32,000 nt of DNA from Nitrososphaerota archaeon. Lineage in GTDB: Archaea > Thermoproteota > Nitrososphaeria > Nitrososphaerales > Nitrosopumilaceae. The stretch is from the NCBI GenBank assembly GCA_022573895.1, contig JACZTB010000008.1:13628-45627 (forward strand), in the 5' to 3' direction. Made by a program: the position numbers and the translations under genes. Positions 3,732 to 24,093 of this stretch are shown here, piece by piece (position 1 is the stretch's first letter; each line of letters starts with the position of its first letter). Under the pieces are notes generated by a model. The model was not told the origin of the DNA and made no database searches. It was given only the letters and a program-made list of their open reading frames with translations.

Positions 3732-5275
3732 AAATTGATGTTTCCGTGTTTTCTAGGTAGTTGTTTTTCTCTTTTGTTTTCAAGCATTTCTAGTGCTTTT
3801 ATTAGCATTGGTCTTGTTTCAGCTGGATCAATTACATTGTCAACAGTTCCATGAGATGCGGCAACGTAAGGATTTTCAAATTTTTCTGCAAATTCATCAA
3901 TTAATTCTTTTTTAAGAGATTCAGGGTCTTCGGCTTTGGCAAGTTCTTTCCTATACATGATTTTTACGGCTGCTTCTCCACCTAAAACTGCACATCTTGC
4001 AGTGGGCCATGCATAGTTAATATCAGTTCTAAGATTTTTACTTCCCATTGCAATGTATGCACCACCATATGCTTTACCAATAACTAGAGTAATTCTTGGA
4101 ACAGTAGCTTCACAAAATGCATAGAGTAACTTACTTCCATGTCTAATGATGCCGTTGTGTTCTTGATTAGAACCAGGCATGTAACCAGGAGTGTCTACCA
4201 AAGTGATTAGGGGTATGTTAAAGGAATCACAGAATCTGATAAAACGTGCTGCCTTATTTGATGAATCAATATCAAGTGCGCCTGCAAGATGCATAGGATT
4301 GTTTGCAATAAATCCAACAACTCTACCATTCATTCTTCCATAACCAACTATAATATTTGGTGCAAACAATTCATGCACTTCAAAGAATTCATGATTGTCA
4401 ACAATTGAGTTAATGATGTCTTTCATGTCATAGGGCTGCAAAGGATTTTCTGGAATTATGTTAATTAGATTATGATCTAATCTATTTGGATCATCATCAG
4501 TTTTTATTTTAGGTGGTTCTTCAGTATTATTTTGTGGAAGATATGAAAGTAATTTTTTAACGTAATCCATACACTCGTATTCATTTTGTGCAACAAAATG
4601 AGCAACCCCACTTTTTGTAGCATGTGTCATTGCTCCACCAAGATCTTCAAATGAAATTTCTTCACCTAATACAGTCTTAACTACATCAGGTCCTGTAACA
4701 AACATAGTTCCTACTTTATCAACCATAATTACAAAGTCTGTCATTGCAGGAGAGTATACAGCACCACCTGCTGATGGGCCTATGCTTGCAGTAATTTGTG
4801 GAATTACTCCGGAAGCTAATTGATTATAATAAAAGATATCTGCAAATCCATCAAGACTCATAATTCCTTCTTGAATTCTAGCACCACCAGAATCCATTAT
4901 TCCAATGATTGGACATCCTGTTCTAAGTGCATGATCTGTTAGTTTAGTAATTTTTTTAGCTCCCATTTTACTTAATGTTCCACCAAGTACAGTAAAGTCA
5001 TAAGCAAAGACAAAGATTTGTCTACCATTTACTGTTCCATAACCACAAACTACACCATCTGTAAAGAATATCTTTTTCTGCATATCATATTCATGATAAT
5101 GGTGTGTGACCAATGAATCCATTTCGGTAAAAGTACCTTCATCAAGTAAAAGATTAATTCTTTCACGAGCAGTTAATTTACCTTTATCATGTTGAGCTTT
5201 GATTCTATCTTGACCCCCTCCTTGTAATGCTGTGTTATTTTTTTTAATATATTCATCAATCTTTTCAGAATGCAT
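3728..5275 (-). CDS. pccB: Carboxyltransferase subunit (PccB/AccD6-like) of acetyl-/propionyl-CoA carboxylase
   Basis: ORF track 515 aa. Shows hallmarks of propionyl-CoA carboxylase beta chains: GKLTARERI, SGGARIQEG, GPSAGGAVYSPAMTDF and GKAYGGAYIAMG. Confidence 0.95.
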   Translation of the reverse strand: MHSEKIDEYIKKNNTALQGGGQDRIKAQHDKGKLTARERINLLLDEGTFTEMDSLVTHHYHEYDMQKKIFFTDGVVCGYGTVNGRQIFVFAYDFTVLGGTLSKMGAKKITKLTDHALRTGCPIIGIMDSGGARIQEGIMSLDGFADIFYYNQLASGVIPQITASIGPSAGGAVYSPAMTDFVIMVDKVGTMFVTGPDVVKTVLGEEISFEDLGGAMTHATKSGVAHFVAQNEYECMDYVKKLLSYLPQNNTEEPPKIKTDDDPNRLDHNLINIIPENPLQPYDMKDIINSIVDNHEFFEVHELFAPNIIVGYGRMNGRVVGFIANNPMHLAGALDIDSSNKAARFIRFCDSFNIPLITLVDTPGYMPGSNQEHNGIIRHGSKLLYAFCEATVPRITLVIGKAYGGAYIAMGSKNLRTDINYAWPTARCAVLGGEAAVKIMYRKELAKAEDPESLKKELIDEFAEKFENPYVAASHGTVDNVIDPAETRPMLIKALEMLENKREKQLPRKHGNINL

Positions 5276-14386: not shown

Positions 14387-14605
14387 TCAGTATTCTTTTC
14401 TAGCTAGTCTCAAAGCTAACTGACGTTTTAATTTTCTAGCTCTAGGTTTTGTTCTCAACAAACGTCCACAACAAGGACACCACAATCCCTTCCATTCAAT
14501 GAATATTTCACATTGAGGACATCGTTTTTGACCCTGTTCATATCTCCCACCTTTACGCCTGTTACTTTCAGCCTTGAGTTTTTTACAAGATCCATCGCAA
14601 TGCAC
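14387..14605 (-). CDS. Basic zinc-ribbon protein (paralogue of 24643..24849)
   Basis: ORF track 72 aa. HCxxxCK...RY...CPQC...CPCCGRLLR followed by an R/K-rich tail. Confidence 0.6.
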   Translation of the reverse strand: MHCDGSCKKLKAESNRRKGGRYEQGQKRCPQCEIFIEWKGLWCPCCGRLLRTKPRARKLKRQLALRLARKEY

Positions 14606-14980
14606 AATATTCTACTAAGAGCAGATATAGAAAATATTGTCGGAGTCATATGTTTCTAAGATTCATAAAGTATTCTTTAAAATTTTCAATTATTTTAGAT
14701 CATTTTTGTAATTTTTTATAAAAAATATTAAATACTGAAATTTCCTATAATATGTTATGCTGTTAGCTCTAAAATCTAACGCATAAACTGCGCATCTCCG
14801 TAGAACCAAAAAGGCAATCAGTCGATACAACGTACTGACAACGAGAGGAAATCTCTCAGAGTTCTGCAGTTAGGGGGTTGTGCCTTTCATATTTTCTTTT
14901 TTCATCCTCACACATTTTTTCTTCTGATAATATTCTCTAAACTCTATTTGATTTTTACAAAAAGTTTTAGGCATGAAACT

Positions 14981-15198
14981 AAAAGTTGGACAGCAATTAA
15001 CTGAGGTGAGATATAATCCGAAGGTTAACGTCCACTGACTTGTAAACGTGCTAAACAGATCGACCAAGTCAGCACATCAATCCATCACTTGGTTTTTACC
15101 AGTCAATGTTTTTTCAGCTAATTACTACCCATCTATCTAATCACATAATATCATAAAAAGATGATCGAGTTTTCTAAGAAATTTAATGGAGCGATCAA
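14981..15198. repeat. Left arm of a diverged long inverted repeat (partner 16621-16841)
   Basis: The reverse complement of 16621-16841 aligns along the whole length. The 46-nt block 15153-15198 is identical to rc(16621-16666). Conserved islands include AAAAGTTGGA, CGTCCACTGAC, ACAGAT, CTACCCA and TAATCAC. Outside the block, about two thirds identity by eye. Confidence 0.85.
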
Positions 15199-15263
15199 GT
15201 TTAACTAAAACTGCAAAACTCTTTGAAAGCCTGTAATTTTAAGAACTTATGCCATTTATGCTG

Positions 15264-15621
15264 TTAAGAATAATACTTGTCTCTACAATTACAAATTTTC
15301 TCTACGACATCCTCTATTGAAATATCAAGTTCAGTACTAACTAGAATCAATCCTGCAGAACTCACAGGAATTGTAAAACGATACACTTTACCATATTTTG
15401 CCATGGCAAAAACTGCAGATTCAATCTTAGAAGCCATTTGTTTCCTAGCTGCCTATCTGTATTGTGCTTGACACAATAAATTTTCTGTTTCTTTTTGTGT
15501 TAGATAAGATTTTTTTCTTTCTTTCATTTAATGAAAAAAAACTACCATCATCATAAATTGAAACGAATCTAATTTTGTCATCTATTTTCAGAATCTTTTG
15601 ACAAAATTCTTCATTATTCAC
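15264..15621 (-). pseudogene. Frameshifted remnant of a small protein gene (58-aa and 57-aa halves in different frames)
   Basis: Frame a from GTG at 15621 reads MNNEEFCQKILKIDDKIRFVSIYDDG..., stopping at 15445-15447. Frame b (15437..15264) reads MASKIESAVFAMAKYGKVYRFTIPVSSAGLILVSTELDISIEDVVEKICN.... Together they resemble a single ~115-aa protein. Homopolymer A/T runs lie between the halves. Confidence 0.4.
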
Positions 15622-15790
15622 ATCAGATTTGGTTCATTGTAGAATAAATTATTTAATTTTGAACTATTCGTTACCAAAAATTACCAATGACTAGATTTCA
15701 AAGGGATTAAAAAAATATGGATATCTTTTTCTGCATGTATTTAACAGGAAAATCCTCATACTTGATTAATACTGTTTGTTATGAAAAATA

Positions 15791-15895
15791 ATGCCAAAAT
15801 GTAGAAATTGTAGAAATGAATTTATTTCCAATGATTCCAGTTTTTGTTCTGATGATTGTTCATGTGCTCATTCAAAGAGATACTTTTTACATTAA
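15791..15895 (+). CDS. Mini zinc-finger protein (34 aa, CxxC...FCSxxC)
   Basis: Below the track cut-off. Reads MPKCRNCRNEFISNDSSFCSDDCSCAHSKRYFLH. Confidence 0.3.
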   Translation: MPKCRNCRNEFISNDSSFCSDDCSCAHSKRYFLH

Positions 15896-16394
15896 TATTG
15901 GCTACGCATGAAAACAAAAAATGTCTTACTGGTTTTTATTTGTAAAATCTACGATTGACAGCATCTCCTCGTTACAGTAAATTATATCCTTGAAATATTA
16001 AAACATGTTCTAATTTTTAAGTACACATGAACATCCTAGAAAATCACATATTCTGCCTGACGTAGTTTTTCTGTGCCACGAGTTCACATGTTCACAAACT
16101 GGGCAATTCGACTTTTCATTGATTTTACTTTTATTCAAACAGATAGATAACTGTCTGAGATTATTATAGGTTATAACCCAAAACTTGTACTAACAAATCA
16201 TACTTTCGTCTTGCTTTAGTCAATCTAGAAAATAAAATTCCATAAAACGTGAGACAATATTGTATCAAGTTTCAAAATATGATTAATTCTCTTCAAAGAG
16301 TCTTAATGTTTTAGTTCATGACTCCACTTTTGCCTGGATATCAAATAAAAAAACTTCTAATTATTAAAAGTGATTTTCATGTATTTATAATATT

Positions 16395-16547
16395 ATGACA
16401 GAACCACCTAAACCAAAAGAAGGGGATGAAATCTGTCCCATGTGTAGAAGACCAAAAAGTAAACATTCTCCTGAAGAATTACTTACATGCTCTCGTAAGA
16501 TGGTAGAGTTTAAGAAAAATACTACAGGTGGGGCTGGAATTGAATGA
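16395..16547 (+). CDS. Small hypothetical protein (50 aa) with one CxxC knuckle
   Basis: Below the track cut-off. Reads MTEPPKPKEGDEICPMCRRPKSKHSPEELLTCSRKMVEFKKNTTGGAGIE. Confidence 0.3.
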   Translation: MTEPPKPKEGDEICPMCRRPKSKHSPEELLTCSRKMVEFKKNTTGGAGIE

Positions 16548-16620
16548 ATATTTGCAAACTGTTAATGAAACTATTAAGATCCAGATCGTTTATGGAACAA
16601 TTTTGGCATTCAGATAGAAA

Positions 16621-16841
16621 TTGATCGCTCCATTAAATTTCTTAGAAAACTCGATCATCTTTTTATTGTATTATTCGTGATTATTAGTTGGGTAGCAATA
16701 AACTGAAGAAAACACCGATGTGTTAAACCAGATCACAGATTATTGGGCTAATACTGGTTAATCTGTAAAGCTCATTTGGCTGTCAGTGGACGATGATTTC
16801 AGGATCAGAGTCTGGGTTTGGCTAGTTGCTATCCAACTTTT
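16621..16841. repeat. Right arm of the diverged long inverted repeat (partner 14981-15198)
   Basis: See the left arm. The perfect 46-nt block is at 16621-16666. Confidence 0.85.
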
Positions 16842-16891
16842 ATGTTTGGCTTTTTGATTTTACAAGTTTTTGGTAACATTTCATTAAATCA

Positions 16892-16913
16892 GTTAACAGT
16901 TCGTATCAAATGT
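16892..16913 (+). repeat. Copy A of motif GTTAACAGTTCGTATCAAATGT
   Basis: 22-nt exact match to 22122-22143. The 19-nt core is also present inverted at 24072-24090. Confidence 0.9.
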
Positions 16914-16994
16914 CAATTAAAAAAGAAAGGGAGGTTTATGATTGAGGTTTTGTATTTTCCACACTCATTAGCAAAAATCACTCCGAAATCTAAA

Positions 16995-18002
16995 CTACTT
17001 TTCACAAACTACCTCACTTCTTTCTCCCTTATCATATAATGAAATAATTGCTTGTACATTGCATTCTGAGATGTATGGAAAGTCTGATTCAATTGTTGGA
17101 AACATCAGATCTTCAGGAGCTGTAGAGTGTGCCAAGCCTAACGCATGACCAAACTCATGTCTGGTAATTATTTCAAGTTGGTTTGGGGTAAGGCTATCTA
17201 CATCAAATAGTGTTATTTGTGATTTTAGAATCTGATTGTTTGATTCATCAGCAATAGAGTTTGTCCACCCAGTAAATCCATCAGAATTTACATAATTTTC
17301 TAATCTTATAGTAATATCTCCTTCTCCCTTTGTTGACTGGATAAATTCAAAATTTACAGGAATGTAAAATTCTGTTGGACTAGCAGATGCGGCTTTTAGG
17401 GCACCCTCCCATCCTAAAAAGTACTCTGACGTCATACCCTTGGGCCCTTTATGCAATAAAGAATCATCAATTTCAATTATTTCCTCAGACTGTATGGCTT
17501 TCTTTATTGATCTGATTTTTTCATCAGAATATCTGTCAGCATTTATTATGTTTACATAAAGTACTTCTTCGGGTATCAAACGCCACGATATCCACGTGTT
17601 GATTGTGTCGCCTCTTAGATTTTGGATTACATATCCTGAAGAAAGTGTTTCAGAAGATACCATATATTGTTCTTCTACCATATTAAAAAAAAGAAACGAA
17701 TAACTGCCACTTACTACAGTTATGGCGATAACTGATAGCATAATTACAGAATAATATTTCTTTTTAGCAGAATATTTTTCCTGCTTCTCAAAAGTCAAAA
17801 AGGAATTCAAGATTAGGTTTTCTTGTTTTAGTTCTCTAGTGTCATGATGATTTTGGGAGATTTGGTTTTCTAGTTTTGCTGTTAATTTGTCCGACTCTAT
17901 TTTGTTTTTTCCAAGAAGATCTGCAAGAGCAATTAATAGAATTTTTTCTTGTCGTACTTCTCGCCTTTTGTAAGATTTAGTAGTTGTGATTAATTGAGAC
18001 AT
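16995..18002 (-). CDS. Membrane-anchored zinc metalloprotease, matrixin/metzincin (M10-like)
   Basis: ORF track 335 aa. N-terminal coiled-coil region, one TM helix (YYSVIMLSVIAITVVSGSYSFLFF), C-terminal HEFGHALGLAHS plus Met-turn LMFP. The ATG lies 2 nt after the upstream stop. Confidence 0.85.
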   Translation of the reverse strand: MSQLITTTKSYKRREVRQEKILLIALADLLGKNKIESDKLTAKLENQISQNHHDTRELKQENLILNSFLTFEKQEKYSAKKKYYSVIMLSVIAITVVSGSYSFLFFNMVEEQYMVSSETLSSGYVIQNLRGDTINTWISWRLIPEEVLYVNIINADRYSDEKIRSIKKAIQSEEIIEIDDSLLHKGPKGMTSEYFLGWEGALKAASASPTEFYIPVNFEFIQSTKGEGDITIRLENYVNSDGFTGWTNSIADESNNQILKSQITLFDVDSLTPNQLEIITRHEFGHALGLAHSTAPEDLMFPTIESDFPYISECNVQAIISLYDKGERSEVVCEK

Positions 18003-18004
18003 TT

Positions 18005-18220
18005 TCAGGTCTTTGTCCTAACTGTTATAGCCTCCAAGCTTCGTGATTCAATAATTTTGTTGACTAGTTCAATGATTAATTTGGTGTTTGATTGCACAAT
18101 TTTGAGTCTTTGAATCTGTTTATCATCCAAGTTGCCTAATTTATCTGCAAGAAGCAGATCAACATATCCACGAATTGGCACTAGTGGGGTTCTCAATTCA
18201 TGAGAAATAATTTCCCACAT
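18005..18220 (-). CDS. Stand-alone HisKA/DHp-domain mini-protein (no ATPase domain)
   Basis: ORF track 71 aa. H-box ISHELRTPLVPIRGYVDLL. The frame stays open upstream to 18346 with a coiled-coil-like LKADKIRELEQERLVLLEIIKQQ but no earlier canonical start. Confidence 0.6.
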   Translation of the reverse strand: MWEIISHELRTPLVPIRGYVDLLLADKLGNLDDKQIQRLKIVQSNTKLIIELVNKIIESRSLEAITVRTKT

Positions 18221-18336
18221 GCTATCAGGAGATAGTTCATAGGATCCTTGTTGTTTGATTATTTCTAAAAGTACTAGTCGTTCTTGTTCTAGTTCCCGAA
18301 TTTTGTCAGCTTTTAGATGTATTGAGAGTTTATCTG

Positions 18337-20259
18337 TCAGTTTTGATCACCATTGATGGATTTCTTACTTTGGTTGTCATGATTTTCATCATTTGTGTAT
18401 GGAATAGTAAAGTAGAATGATGTGCCCTTTCCTACCTCAGAATCTACCCAGATTTTACCGCCTAGTTCAGTAACAATTCCTTTACAAATTACTAGTCCCA
18501 GCCCTGTTCCACCATGTGTTCTTTCTAGTGAAGTATCTATCTGGTAGAACTTTCTGAAAAGACCTGAAATTTTATCTGTTGGTATTCCGATGCCATTGTC
18601 TTTTACATAAAATAAGATATCTCCATTCTGAAGTATAGCTCCTAACTGGATTTTTCCAGAATTTTCAGATACAACTTTGATTGCATTTCGAATCAAATTT
18701 GTAATGACTTGAGACAGTCTATTACGATCAGTGTATATTTCTAAATCAGCAACATCCAAAGTTATTGAAATATCTTTTTTTTCTGCCATTAATTCTCCGT
18801 GTTTCTTTATTTCATCAAAGAAATCGCAAAGTCTGAATTTATCCTTGATGAACTTCATCTTGTTCATTTCTAGTTTTTGAGCATCCAAAATATCGTCAGT
18901 GAGACGCTCTAAACTGTTCGCCATGTTTTCAATCTCATTGACTGCCTCAAGCTGTTCTGAGGTAAGTGTTCCCAACATTTTTTTGTCTTTTAGCATCCTA
19001 CAGTACATCTTTATTGGAAAAATTGGTGTCTTTAGTTCATGAGACACCATGGCCGAAAATTCATCTTTTTGGGAAACGAATTTCTTTTCAGTTTCAAGTT
19101 CTAATTTAGATTTTACTAGTTCTTGTTCAATGGATATCTTGTCGAGTAATTCTTTGAATTGAGTTCGAATTATTTGTTTATCAGTTTTCATTTTTTGGGC
19201 CATTTGTTCCATAGACTTTCCAAGGGACAAAAATTCATCGTTTGTTTTTAAACCAGATTTGGAATCATAGTGTCCTTTTGCATATTCTTTTGTTAATAGT
19301 TCTAATTTTGAAATTGGATTTGTCAAAGTTTTTGAAAACAAAATTGATATTATAGAAATTGCAAAAATTAGTAATACTGAGGTAACAGCTATACTAATTT
19401 TAATATCATCAAGGGGTGCTAAAGCTTCGGATACATCTATCTTTGCCACCAGTCCCAAATTTACATCACTTATTGCTCTAGTTACTGCAAAAACTGGCAC
19501 TCCTCTATAATCTACTGTCTCAAGAAAAACCTCGTTATGTAAAAGAGCTTGGGTAATTGGGATGGCTAATTCATCCTTAGATATTATTACTCTTGCATTA
19601 GGATCATCTTGGAACTTTAGAGCATTAATGAAAATTGCATGACCCTCGACAGTTTTTTCTGCAATCAGGTATTCTCCAGTTTCTCCAAAATAATCTTTTA
19701 TCATTGGCCTATTAAGTTCATGTGGATCTATCAAAGCATATACAAATCCTAAATTCTTGTTGTCTGAGAATAAAGTTCTGCTAAGATAGGCATCATCCAC
19801 TGGGTGTTCTTGATATGAGAAACCAAATTTAAAATCTTCTGATTCTTCCGGAATGAATTTGTCATCCAAATAATTTCCTATAAGTGTGGGATCTGTAGAT
19901 GCGACGATCCTTCCATCTAAATTGATAATGGATAAAATTTTAAAATTATCATCAGAGTTTTGTACATCAATCAATATTTTATTCATTTTTTCTACATGCT
20001 CTGGAGATTCGTGTTGATTATACTCATCCAAAAGAAATCGTAGATTTGTTCTACTGCCAACTAAATTTATTTTGTCTTCGTAAAGATGTAAAACATCATT
20101 AATTCGTAGTCTTTCTAAATCAGCTGTTGTAGATAACATGTTCTCAACTTGAGATATGATCTGGTCATAGGAACTTTGATGAAAATATATGCCTATCGAA
20201 GCAATTGGAATTAAACCAATGATAATAAACAAAGGAATAATTTTAATTTTATAAAGCAT
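18337..20259 (-). CDS. Sensor histidine kinase (TM - Cache-like extracytoplasmic domain - TM - HAMP - HisKA - HATPase_c)
   Basis: ORF track 640 aa with two TM segments. GETGEYLIAE / DYRGVPVFAV are Cache-type motifs. H-box SHELKTPI, N-box NLIRNAIK, G-boxes DNGIGIP and GGTGLGLVICK. Confidence 0.9.
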   Translation of the reverse strand: MLYKIKIIPLFIIIGLIPIASIGIYFHQSSYDQIISQVENMLSTTADLERLRINDVLHLYEDKINLVGSRTNLRFLLDEYNQHESPEHVEKMNKILIDVQNSDDNFKILSIINLDGRIVASTDPTLIGNYLDDKFIPEESEDFKFGFSYQEHPVDDAYLSRTLFSDNKNLGFVYALIDPHELNRPMIKDYFGETGEYLIAEKTVEGHAIFINALKFQDDPNARVIISKDELAIPITQALLHNEVFLETVDYRGVPVFAVTRAISDVNLGLVAKIDVSEALAPLDDIKISIAVTSVLLIFAISIISILFSKTLTNPISKLELLTKEYAKGHYDSKSGLKTNDEFLSLGKSMEQMAQKMKTDKQIIRTQFKELLDKISIEQELVKSKLELETEKKFVSQKDEFSAMVSHELKTPIFPIKMYCRMLKDKKMLGTLTSEQLEAVNEIENMANSLERLTDDILDAQKLEMNKMKFIKDKFRLCDFFDEIKKHGELMAEKKDISITLDVADLEIYTDRNRLSQVITNLIRNAIKVVSENSGKIQLGAILQNGDILFYVKDNGIGIPTDKISGLFRKFYQIDTSLERTHGGTGLGLVICKGIVTELGGKIWVDSEVGKGTSFYFTIPYTNDENHDNQSKKSINGDQN

Positions 20260-20314
20260 TTCTCTTTATCACTCCCAAGTTTTCATCTCTTGCTTGGTTT
20301 GTAGAATAAAGAAA

Positions 20315-20670
20315 TCAAGACATAACCTCTATTAGCGTATCTACATCCATTGGTTTTCTTTGGATAGAATGAACTCCCTTTTTTTTGAGGCTATTAGTTG
20401 TAGCTTCATCTATTGTGGTCGCAGTCAATACTATGATTTTTTGATTTTTTATCTTATCTTCTTTTACCAATTCATCAATTACATCAATTCCTGTAAAATC
20501 TGGCATTGCAAGATCTAGCAGTATAACATCAAAAGATCCTTTCTTAATTAGTTCAACAGCATTCCTACCATCATTTACTACTGTACACTCGTGTTTCTTG
20601 AAAGTAAGAAATTTTGATAATGCCTTGGTAATTGTCTCGTTATCATCTACGAGCAGAATTCTTATTTCAT
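20315..20670 (-). pseudogene. Receiver-only response regulator with a frameshift right after its start codon
   Basis: GGTGA-ATG at 20670 reads ATG AAA TAA. The receiver frame (NEIRILLVDDNETI...LLDLAMPDFTG...) opens at 20671 in the +1 frame and has no ATG/GTG/TTG before residue 56. The track only reports the 63-aa C-terminal piece. Confidence 0.65.
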
Positions 20671-20833
20671 TTCACCTCTATAGGACTGAAGTACAATCCT
20701 TAAAGCAAAGTGCCTATTGATTACACAAGTCATGTTGTATATTACGCAAAAATTACATGTAAACGATCCTCACTTTAGGACTCCCTTAGGGGAGTTCTTT
20801 TTAGTTAAGACTTTTCAATTAATTTCAAGTAAG

Positions 20834-21124
20834 ATGGATAGTAAAAAACCAGAAACAACTAGAAGAGAACGTAGACCTAAACTGGACATTTATTTTGCGA
20901 TTCTAAATGCAATTCAGCAAGAAGAAACAGATGAAGGGGTCAAACCTACCAGAATTCAATACGCAAGTGGCATGTCTTATGACAAGGTAGCAAGACACCT
21001 AAAAGTTCTTCAAGAAAAAAAACTGATAATCAAAAAAGAATACTATCACCTTACAGAGAAGGGTCATAAATTTTTAGCAGAATATTCTTTGGTTAAGGAC
21101 TTTGTAGATAGAATGGACTTGTAA
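20834..21124 (+). CDS. Winged-helix transcriptional regulator (small archaeal wHTH)
   Basis: The track ORF starts at 20717 on an alternative codon; ATG at 20834 gives MDSKKPETTRRERRPKLDIYFAILNAIQ...YHLTEKGHKFL, a typical wHTH layout. Divergent from the response-regulator/kinase operon. Confidence 0.7.
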   Translation: MDSKKPETTRRERRPKLDIYFAILNAIQQEETDEGVKPTRIQYASGMSYDKVARHLKVLQEKKLIIKKEYYHLTEKGHKFLAEYSLVKDFVDRMDL

Positions 21125-21757
21125 TTATTTTCCATTTCCAAATCCAATAAGACCTACTCCTTTGTAGTGGCTTTTCTGGGACTCATTTTTGTTAGTGTTG
21201 ATTATATTTTTAATAAGATAATTGCAAATCGGATGTGATCTGGTACTGTGATGTCCTAAATTTGATTCCACTCACTACGTATTTTCAAAATTATTTCATT
21301 AAAACAATTAATAATTGGATAGCGATCGTCTAGGATTTGAACGTGGATCCTTTGACCAGGCATTCACTGACCGAAAACAGCGGTCAACTGCTTCTTCCCA
21401 GTTGATTACTATCCACATATTATTACACTTACAAAAAATAAAAAGATGATCTTTTGTGAAATATGAAAAAGAAATATGCGATCTGCATAACACAAATTAT
21501 TAATTAAATTAGATTGACTTGTTTGTTAATTTTTAATTTCTAACCGATCAAATATTTATGAATATTAATTTAAAAACATAGTACAAGCCGATCAAAATAG
21601 AAAATAAAAAATTATCAAAAATTCACACTAACACTGTTAATTGAGTACTCTTAATGATATTAATCGATCATAACTGAATTTAAAAAAATTAAAAACCTTT
21701 GGACTCAACCGAGTGCACACATGCGTGGTTAACTGAAACTGTTCTTTACAGAAACTT

Positions 21758-22117: not shown

Positions 22118-22143
22118 GTTCGTTAACAGTTCGTATCAAATGT
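22118..22143 (+). repeat. Copy B of motif (GTTC)GTTAACAGTTCGTATCAAATGT
   Basis: Exact 22 nt shared with copy A. 24 of 25 nt match the inverted copy C. Confidence 0.9.
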
Positions 22144-24068: not shown

Positions 24069-24093
24069 ACGTTTGATACGAACTGTTAACGAA
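24069..24093 (-). repeat. Copy C (inverted) of motif GTTAACAGTTCGTATCAAA
   Basis: The plus strand reads ACGTTTGATACGAACTGTTAACGAAAC, starting 29 nt after the CheY stop. Confidence 0.9.

Follow-up and report, generated by a model that had tools for sequence, protein, structure and literature searches.

The window analysed here, a 32,000-nucleotide stretch of contig JACZTB010000008.1 from a Nitrosopumilales archaeon, contains an inverted repeat whose arms are probably two divergent paralogous genes of a lineage-specific candidate family of non-coding RNAs (ncRNAs) that are structured, each about 150 nt long. Both arms carry an identical 46-nt block on their inner side, which is best read as a promoter region common to the two genes, that is, as upstream DNA rather than as part of the RNA. 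The candidate family is previously undescribed and has a narrow lineage range, and its RNAs may act in trans, as regulators or by binding protein, with transcription of the genes under common control.

The ammonia-oxidising Thaumarchaeota (Nitrosopumilales) rank with the most abundant microbes of the sea, and, to our knowledge, almost nothing is known of their ncRNAs or of promoter-proximal regulation in these organisms. The locus offers a candidate structured RNA family with several paralogs per genome, and its dyad element of about 37 bp, fused to a putative TATA box, could serve as a ready probe for the controlling transcription factor. Furthermore, it illustrates how an inverted repeat with a frozen core can arise from divergent paralogous RNA genes, which would help in the triage of similar finds. 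The apparently narrow clade range limits the immediate impact of these observations. The predicted genes and their upstream blocks are listed below in window coordinates.

16687-16841, + strand: right-arm ncRNA gene (R-type), about 150 nt; 5' strand of terminal helix P1 at 16687-16699, 3' strand of P1 at 16825-16837
16621-16666, + strand: 46-nt block of the R-type gene, an exact match to the left copy
14981-15133, - strand: left-arm ncRNA gene (L-type paralog), predicted to be transcribed leftward; 5' strand of P1 at 15121-15133, oligo-T (as RNA) at 14981-14984
15153-15198, - strand: 46-nt block of the L-type gene; putative TATA box 15153-15160, half-sites 15162-15169 and 15191-15198 (+ strand coordinates)
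21305-21419, - strand: third, shorter paralog (T-type), first seen as a side-hit of a BLAST search

An inverted repeat with a frozen core

In both a pairwise and a multiple alignment, window positions 14981-15198 match the reverse complement of 16621-16841 from end to end. Exactly two copies of the 46-mer ATAAAAAGATGATCGAGTTTTCTAAGAAATTTAATGGAGCGATCAA lie in the window (15153-15198, +, and 16621-16666, -), without a mismatch and with 0 occurrences expected by chance. In a repeat search the near-perfect inverted match grew to 57 nt, with 95% identity between 15145-15201 and 16618-16674. Identity between the arms is 46/46 in the block, 10/21 in the stretch of about 22 nt between block and body, and 97/151 (64%) in the RNA body. 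At 64% per site, simple arithmetic gives a probability of about 1e-9 for 46 identities in a row, and the contrast between the frozen block and the diverged body is therefore not a matter of chance. An initial annotation, made from the DNA letters, had described diverged inverted repeats with an identical 46-nt inner block and an outer identity of about two thirds; this description agrees with the alignments and with the 64% measured in the body, and the conserved islands and the TGATCG/CGATCA dyad that it named are all present. The inverted layout itself would be an accident, with two family members lying back to back.

Block identity remains at 43-46/46 in homologues from other genomes, including copies that were found without the block as a query (L001, L002, L014-L020). 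Since the block is near-invariant even among the latter, purifying selection is indicated. The same annotation had inferred selection or ongoing gene conversion from the contrast between the two parts of each arm, and both processes find support, the former in the near-invariance of the block across genomes and the latter in mosaic copies (described below) that reveal recombination.

A putative promoter and terminator

Read in the direction of the R-type gene, the block has two half-sites, TTGATCGC (16621-16628) and CTCGATCA (16650-16657), placed around the A/T-rich TTAAATTT, and ends in the TATA box CTTTTTAT (16659-16666), 20 nt short of the first base of P1 (16687). This spacing of about 20 nt between TATA box and P1 is found in the R-, L- and T-type genes alike. 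Promoter and terminator calls are consensus matches throughout, and by this measure the last 8 nt of the block (CTTTTTAT) would be an archaeal TATA box. The first 37 nt form the dyad TTGATCGC-N21-CTCGATCA, with half-site centres 29 bp apart, and are most plausibly a putative transcription-factor binding site. TATA boxes of the same kind stand some 24-33 nt ahead of the start codons of protein genes in the window (e.g., cctttttatac at gene 1134 (-) and atttttatct at gene 8987 (+)). Within the window, the block is found only upstream of the RNA genes of this family, and the motifs GATC and CGATCA are not enriched in the window (108 observed vs 95 expected, and 11 vs 10, respectively).

At the other end of the gene, P1 is followed by TTTT and further T-runs that were read as a terminator; in the R-type gene the oligo-T run lies at 16838-16841, with more T-runs to about 16875. 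Transcription would thus begin about 20-24 nt past the TATA box, at the first base of the 13-bp terminal helix, and would stop at the oligo-T run right after this helix. An RNA that begins with its terminal helix and ends just after it has a design typical of stable RNA.

The terminal helix recurs in the T-type paralog, as do the motifs AACUG and GUCAGUG(A/G)A and, at about 21438-21452 (+ strand), the promoter core GATCATCTTTTTAT; the central domain of about 50 nt is missing from it. The A/T-rich sequence at 21460-21700, upstream of the T-type gene, contains three CGATCA motifs (21545, 21589 and 21665) at spacings of 44 and 76 bp, which echo the half-sites of the block.

A predicted strand-specific RNA structure

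A joint fold of both arms reaches -29.8 kcal/mol on the outward strand, where it includes a long terminal helix, and -18.3 kcal/mol on the opposite strand. The terminal helix joins the sequence just inside each arm (GUUGGGUAGCAAU) to the outermost sequence (GUUGCUAUCCAAC), which is followed by UUUU; P1 contributes 13 bp and P1b extends the helix to 18-20 bp. Folding of single sequences gave z-scores of -2.9 for the R-type, -3.6 for the L-type and -3.2 for the T-type RNA.

A nested model consisting of P1, P1b, H2, H3 and a two-part H4 was tested on an alignment of 14 distinct copies. In this model 89.4% of cells pair, compared to 32-41% when all 3' partners are shifted by 1-3 columns. The pairs together comprise 84 G·U cells vs 13 A·C cells, a count that carries the caveat that the structure itself was derived on the outward strand. 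Each G·U turns into an A·C mismatch on the other strand, where pairing would drop to 75.6%. Four to five pairs are changed on both sides, and the covariation score was unmatched by any of 500 shuffles. Helix H3 (UGCGCU/AGCGCA) is 100% paired and has the variants C-G, U-A, G-U and A-U; H4 and P1b each show one double change, and the remaining variation in P1 and P1b is limited to wobble-compatible transitions. There is as such moderate support, at low sequence diversity, for a fold that is kept through wobble and compensatory changes on one strand. In the central domain, three segment pairs are ordered a b c a' b' c', each of them 94-100% paired. As crossing pairs of this kind cannot all nest, the domain would form a pseudoknot or else change between alternative conformers.

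A covariance model (R1) based on 14 distinct copies scores 183.7 bits on the R-type gene over 16685-16846 (+), 131.2 bits on the L-type gene over 14976-15135 (-) and 61.2 bits (E = 6e-13) on the T-type gene. With filters off, R1 found no further family member in the window beyond these three.

There is no conserved open reading frame (ORF) on either strand of the arms, and the R-type RNA strand meets a stop after 9 codons. Searches against known RNA classes were similarly negative. The whole window has 0 matches in Rfam 15 at gathering thresholds, and when 14600-17100 and each RNA alone were searched at E up to 10, the best results were chance matches of 8-13 bits to models of microRNAs, small nucleolar RNAs (snoRNAs) and long non-coding RNAs. 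A scan for transfer and transfer-messenger RNAs (ARAGORN) found none. Archaeal C/D-box small RNAs (sRNAs) carry C (RUGAUGA) and D (CUGA) boxes by a terminal stem, and in H/ACA sRNAs an ACA box lies 3 nt away from the 3' end. The alignments here show no C box that is conserved, their 3' end reads CCAACUUUU, and the snoRNA models of Rfam score at chance only; both classes were rejected on these grounds. Targets for the invariant GUCAGUGGACG loop were sought within the window, where nothing above chance was found, and literature searches on thaumarchaeal ncRNAs turned up no matching description.

Homologues, subtypes and recombination

Homologues were recovered by several routes. A scan with two conserved islands of the body (GTCAGTGGACG ... 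TCCAACTTTT) found single copies in two metagenome-assembled genomes of Nitrosopumilales/Thaumarchaeota (L001 and L002), both of which keep the upstream block with 3 changes only. In metagenomes, scanning for a 23-mer of the block gave 8 contigs (L003-L010), and a look-up of the identical 50-amino acid (aa) protein encoded beside the R-type gene gave 10 more (L011-L020), several of which carry the RNA in different downstream contexts. Homologues with the upstream block stand singly in many gene contexts of related Nitrosopumilales contigs.

R-type copies at 85-97% identity occur in ten of these contigs (L001, L002, L005, L007, L008, L009, L014, L015, L018 and L020), and the left arm is matched at 88% identity by two L-type homologues (L003 and L010). 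Since other genomes contain both body types too, the split between L and R must be old and both types maintained. Mosaics are also present: in L010 an R-like leader and P1 are joined to an L-like body, in L009 and L004 L-like flanks surround R-like bodies, and L003 has an R-like patch in H4. These copies imply that recombination among family members occurs, which would help to keep the block uniform.

A history that accommodates these observations could be as follows. The bodies would have split into types L, R and the shorter T, with a common fold kept by wobble and compensatory substitutions, and the block would be unable to drift because it is read as a DNA sequence. Recombination among copies would homogenise the block as well.

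The family seems to be confined to a narrow clade. A 37-mer from the block had no match in viral contigs, and blastn of 14950-16900 against phage and plasmid collections gave no match. Five matches in viral contigs to a degenerate body pattern were rejected as chance; they lie in G+C-rich (54-58%) DNA resembling a conserved phage protein-coding gene, and the RNA model does not match them.

Weighing the explanations

Two of the alternatives to RNA genes come from the initial annotation and treat the repeat as mobile or invertible DNA. In one of them the inverted repeats of 46-57 bp would serve as crossover sites, and flipping of 15199-16620 would change the neighbour of each arm. Inverted repeats (46 bp identical, 57 bp at 95%) do bound a 1.4-kb segment, as in Hin/Gin/Fim-type switches, and the inter-copy recombination seen in the mosaics L010, L009, L004 and L003 makes inversion by homologous recombination physically possible now and then. 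However, when every ORF in the 32-kb window that reaches 100 aa was searched against Pfam, together with the small ORFs lying between the arms, no serine or tyrosine recombinase, invertase, integrase or transposase domain was found. Furthermore, the block is not specific to this locus: elsewhere it precedes single copies without a partner, in at least 8 contexts (e.g., L001, L002, L005 and L007), and no contig joins the 50-aa gene to the L-type body, as the flipped state would. The window and two contigs from two other samples that span both arms at 99.8% identity (L012 and L013) have a single orientation, these being three assemblies and not reads. An invertible segment is thus left unsupported and is, in our judgement, very unlikely. 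A non-autonomous mobile element similar to a miniature inverted-repeat transposable element (MITE) or a short interspersed nuclear element, or the remnant of one, would explain other features, with the terminal helix as terminal inverted repeat and a transposase encoded elsewhere. Units of about 220-340 bp lie in many unrelated contexts, beside TFIIB, PAC2, pterin dehydratase, matrixin and PNPOx-like genes; three copies are in the window and more than 10 distinct copies in differing contexts of related contigs; metagenome assemblies break in or beside the unit (L004, L016, L026 and L011), and the strands of the 13-bp P1 are readable as terminal inverted repeats. Such short units with terminal complementarity, many copies and assembly breaks are indeed shared with MITEs. 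Yet there are no target-site duplications at the unit borders (12 copies with distinct flanks), and homology ends raggedly instead of at fixed borders. The unit is also asymmetric, having the 46-nt block and 20-nt leader on one side only, and it has promoter and terminator signals. Distinct conserved subtypes exist, the window has no transposase and the phage and plasmid collections no match, and the substitutions keep internal helices and favour G·U over A·C, which points to selection on RNA and not on a DNA hairpin. The composite mobile element proposed earlier is as such not upheld in the form given, for want of target-site duplications, a transposase and a symmetric unit; its dispersal into many contexts is real, and we consider a mobile origin of this kind improbable.

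A different question is whether the block belongs to the transcript, where it would form a hairpin in a 5' leader or open an inward leaderless micro-ORF (MIEFSKKFNGAI...), rather than to a promoter. The TGATCG/CGATCA dyad could form a 6-bp RNA hairpin, TTAAATTT inside the block is a possible alternative TATA box, and an ATG on the inward strand of the block opens a 15-aa ORF in one arm and a 22-aa ORF in the other. However, copies in different contexts have no TATA-like element in common upstream of the block, which argues against a transcribed leader, and the hairpin is without covariation support because its columns are invariant. The micro-ORF (MIEFSKKF...) varies in length and C-terminus (15 and 22 aa in the arms, 6 aa in the T-type), its ATG is lost in L002 (CTG; the block reads CAGC), and conservation of the block extends to every codon position, unlike that of a coding sequence. 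A transcribed block is consequently an explanation that we hold to be decidedly improbable. Inverted origin-recognition boxes flanking an A/T-rich unwinding region could also mark an archaeal replication origin, and the repeats do surround a gene-poor stretch of 30% G+C. The CAGTGGA motif may bear a weak likeness to the cores of origin-recognition boxes, but it sits inside a structured, strand-specific RNA body. Pfam found no orc1/cdc6 gene nearby in the window, the cumulative GC skew has no inflection at the locus, and the repeat unit stands singly, many times, in related genomes, which leaves an origin as barely conceivable.

Two outward-facing paralogous ncRNA genes that share a promoter or leader block, the second possibility raised by the initial annotation, are supported by the strand-specific structure, the geometry of promoter and terminator, and the conservation of body and block in other genomes. 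Several points nevertheless weigh against this interpretation. Transcription itself, its start and its 3' end are deduced from DNA sequence, and the second TATA-like element within the block (TTAAATTT) could start transcription about 28 nt earlier. The count of pairs with double changes is not significant vs shuffles (87/500, and 10/500 in a second analysis), and sequence diversity is low, with essentially two body types and one short paralog. The three mutually crossing segment pairs mean that the structure model is incomplete. Lastly, neither the RNA model nor a motif search found a family member at the loci of 50-aa protein homologues in Nitrosopumilus ureiphilus (L021) and in L022-L024, or at the syntenic loci L032-L038, which hold the cluster of winged-helix, response-regulator, kinase and matrixin genes. 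The winged-helix proteins of these syntenic relatives without the RNA are 75-88% identical to that of the window, and the family would be either young or fast-evolving.

A more far-reaching interpretation, which seems to us rather unlikely, is that of a new archaeal RNA class, in which a multi-helix pseudoknot is accompanied by a dedicated, near-invariant upstream element, and copies spread and swap body cassettes (L, R and mosaic) by recombination at the block. If this were true, the locus would contain an RNA gene that moves or switches cassettes, and its product, which might be a catalyst or form the core of a ribonucleoprotein, would not be an ordinary regulatory sRNA.

Relation to known RNA families

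Several multi-copy sRNA families of bacteria have a conserved upstream site for a regulator, such as Qrr1-5 (LuxO/sigma-54 sites), RsmX/Y/Z (a palindromic GacA upstream activating sequence) and PrrF1/2 (a Fur box). The RNA genes described here are similar to these in that there are several paralogs per genome, located close together and with their own putative promoters, and in that the upstream element is palindromic and better conserved than the RNA bodies. They differ in the archaeal TATA-type promoter predicted here and in an RNA of about 150 nt closed by a long 5'/3' helix, whereas the bacterial RNAs are short and have seed regions. There is also no sequence or Rfam relationship.

Y RNA and YrlA, which are ribonucleoprotein scaffolds with a closing stem, are likewise 100-200 nt long, with 5' and 3' ends in a long conserved stem, a U-tract after the stem, a variable internal module and several paralogs. 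Unlike in those cases, there is no Rfam match here at E up to 10, and Pfam found no Ro/TROVE, Rtc or other partner gene nearby in the window. In addition, the conserved motifs (AACUG and GUCAGUGGA) are unrelated to the Ro-binding helix of Y RNA.

Tan1 is an abundant lineage-specific ncRNA of marine group II Euryarchaeota that was defined from transcript data (PMC5069720). Like the present candidate family, it is restricted to one lineage of uncultured marine archaea and came to light through environmental sequence. By description, on which this comparison is based, the two differ in host phylum and in that the present family is known from sequence alone (PMC5069720).

Neighbouring genes and the enclosed segment

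The window is otherwise ordinary chromosomal DNA that encodes Nuo subunits, acetyl/propionyl-CoA carboxylase, RFC, GlutR and a two-component cluster, and extension of the source contig yielded only the Nuo operon, to the left. Two features lie between the RNA genes.

16395-16547, + strand: conserved gene for a 50-aa zinc-knuckle-like protein (C-x2-C...H...C, CCHC-like), directly upstream of the R-type gene and in the same orientation
15199-16394, no strand assigned: spacer between the divergent RNA genes, with small ORFs at 15264-15437 (-), 15445-15621 (-) and 15791-15895 (+)

Homologues of the 50-aa protein form 81 clusters, of which one is represented in the complete Nitrosopumilus ureiphilus genome. 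It follows that 15199-16620 holds more than the gene remnant and two mini ORFs ascribed to it in the initial annotation, since 16395-16547 is a real conserved gene. An identical gene lies directly upstream of the R-type copy in L012-L016, L018 and L020, and near-identical homologues are placed likewise in L002 and L008. The gene precedes roughly half of the R-type copies, and no gene is a constant neighbour of the family; the 50-aa protein is a neighbour, not a demonstrated partner, of the R-type RNA. The protein is also encoded 100% identically in at least 6 gene neighbourhoods (metagenome contigs, most carriers being shorter than 3 kb), and by this pattern its gene appears to behave like part of a multi-copy or highly rearranged module.

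The spacer at 15199-16394 lies outside any repeat unit, and the only contigs that share it are the near-identical L012, L013 and L025. Its ORF at 15264-15437 (-) is also predicted by gene callers in near-identical contigs. The segment 15264-15621 (-), the putative frameshifted gene remnant of the initial annotation, consists of two adjacent ORFs that differ in frame (58 aa and 57 aa) and that no contigs other than the near-identical ones contain. Pfam gave no family match for the small ORFs of the spacer or for the two ORFs of 15264-15621, separate or joined.

Between the R- and T-type genes, 16995-21124 encodes a matrixin-like peptidase, a HisKA-only fragment (18005-18220), a dCache-HAMP histidine kinase, a receiver-like fragment of 63 aa and, at 20732-21124, an HTH_45 winged-helix protein. 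Clusters like this one occur in relatives without the RNAs (L034 and L036-L038).

Other repeated elements

The 18-mer ACAGTTCGTATCAAATGT occurs in the window at 16896-16913 (+), 22126-22143 (+) and 24069-24086 (-), where 0.01 occurrences would be expected. It is usually found inside TTAACAGTTCGTATCAAATGTTAAT, an imperfect dyad (TTAACA...TGTTAA), is intergenic and often lies just downstream of RNA genes. It is also present in L001 (4 copies), L002 (3), L009 (2) and 12 other loci, and could be a dispersed motif with a regulatory or terminator-like role.

Just outside the left arm, a non-coding stretch of 259 nt at 14663-14921 (-) is 93% identical to segments of L014, L016 and L017. Its counterparts lie in other contexts and orientations, beside a 104-aa gene that is absent from the window, and its fold is unexceptional (z = -0.4). 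This distribution suggests that the stretch is part of a rearrangement-prone island.

Another conserved ncRNA-like element, GGAAGCCAAC...GTTGGCTTCCGTGTTTCAAATAGC, has complementary ends and adjoins the RNA family in both contigs from metagenome-assembled genomes (L001 at 1139-1250 and 1990-2100; L002 at about 1310-1400 on the - strand), with 0 matches in the window at up to 3 mismatches. Finally, downstream of the winged-helix gene in L037 (about 4150-4330) and L038 (about 4030-4260), two tandem units of about 75 nt (…CTGAAAAAATTTTCGAGGCTCAGATGAGGATTTTACTATGATTATCC…) are located where the window has the T-type gene, and these may be a different small-RNA or repeat element.

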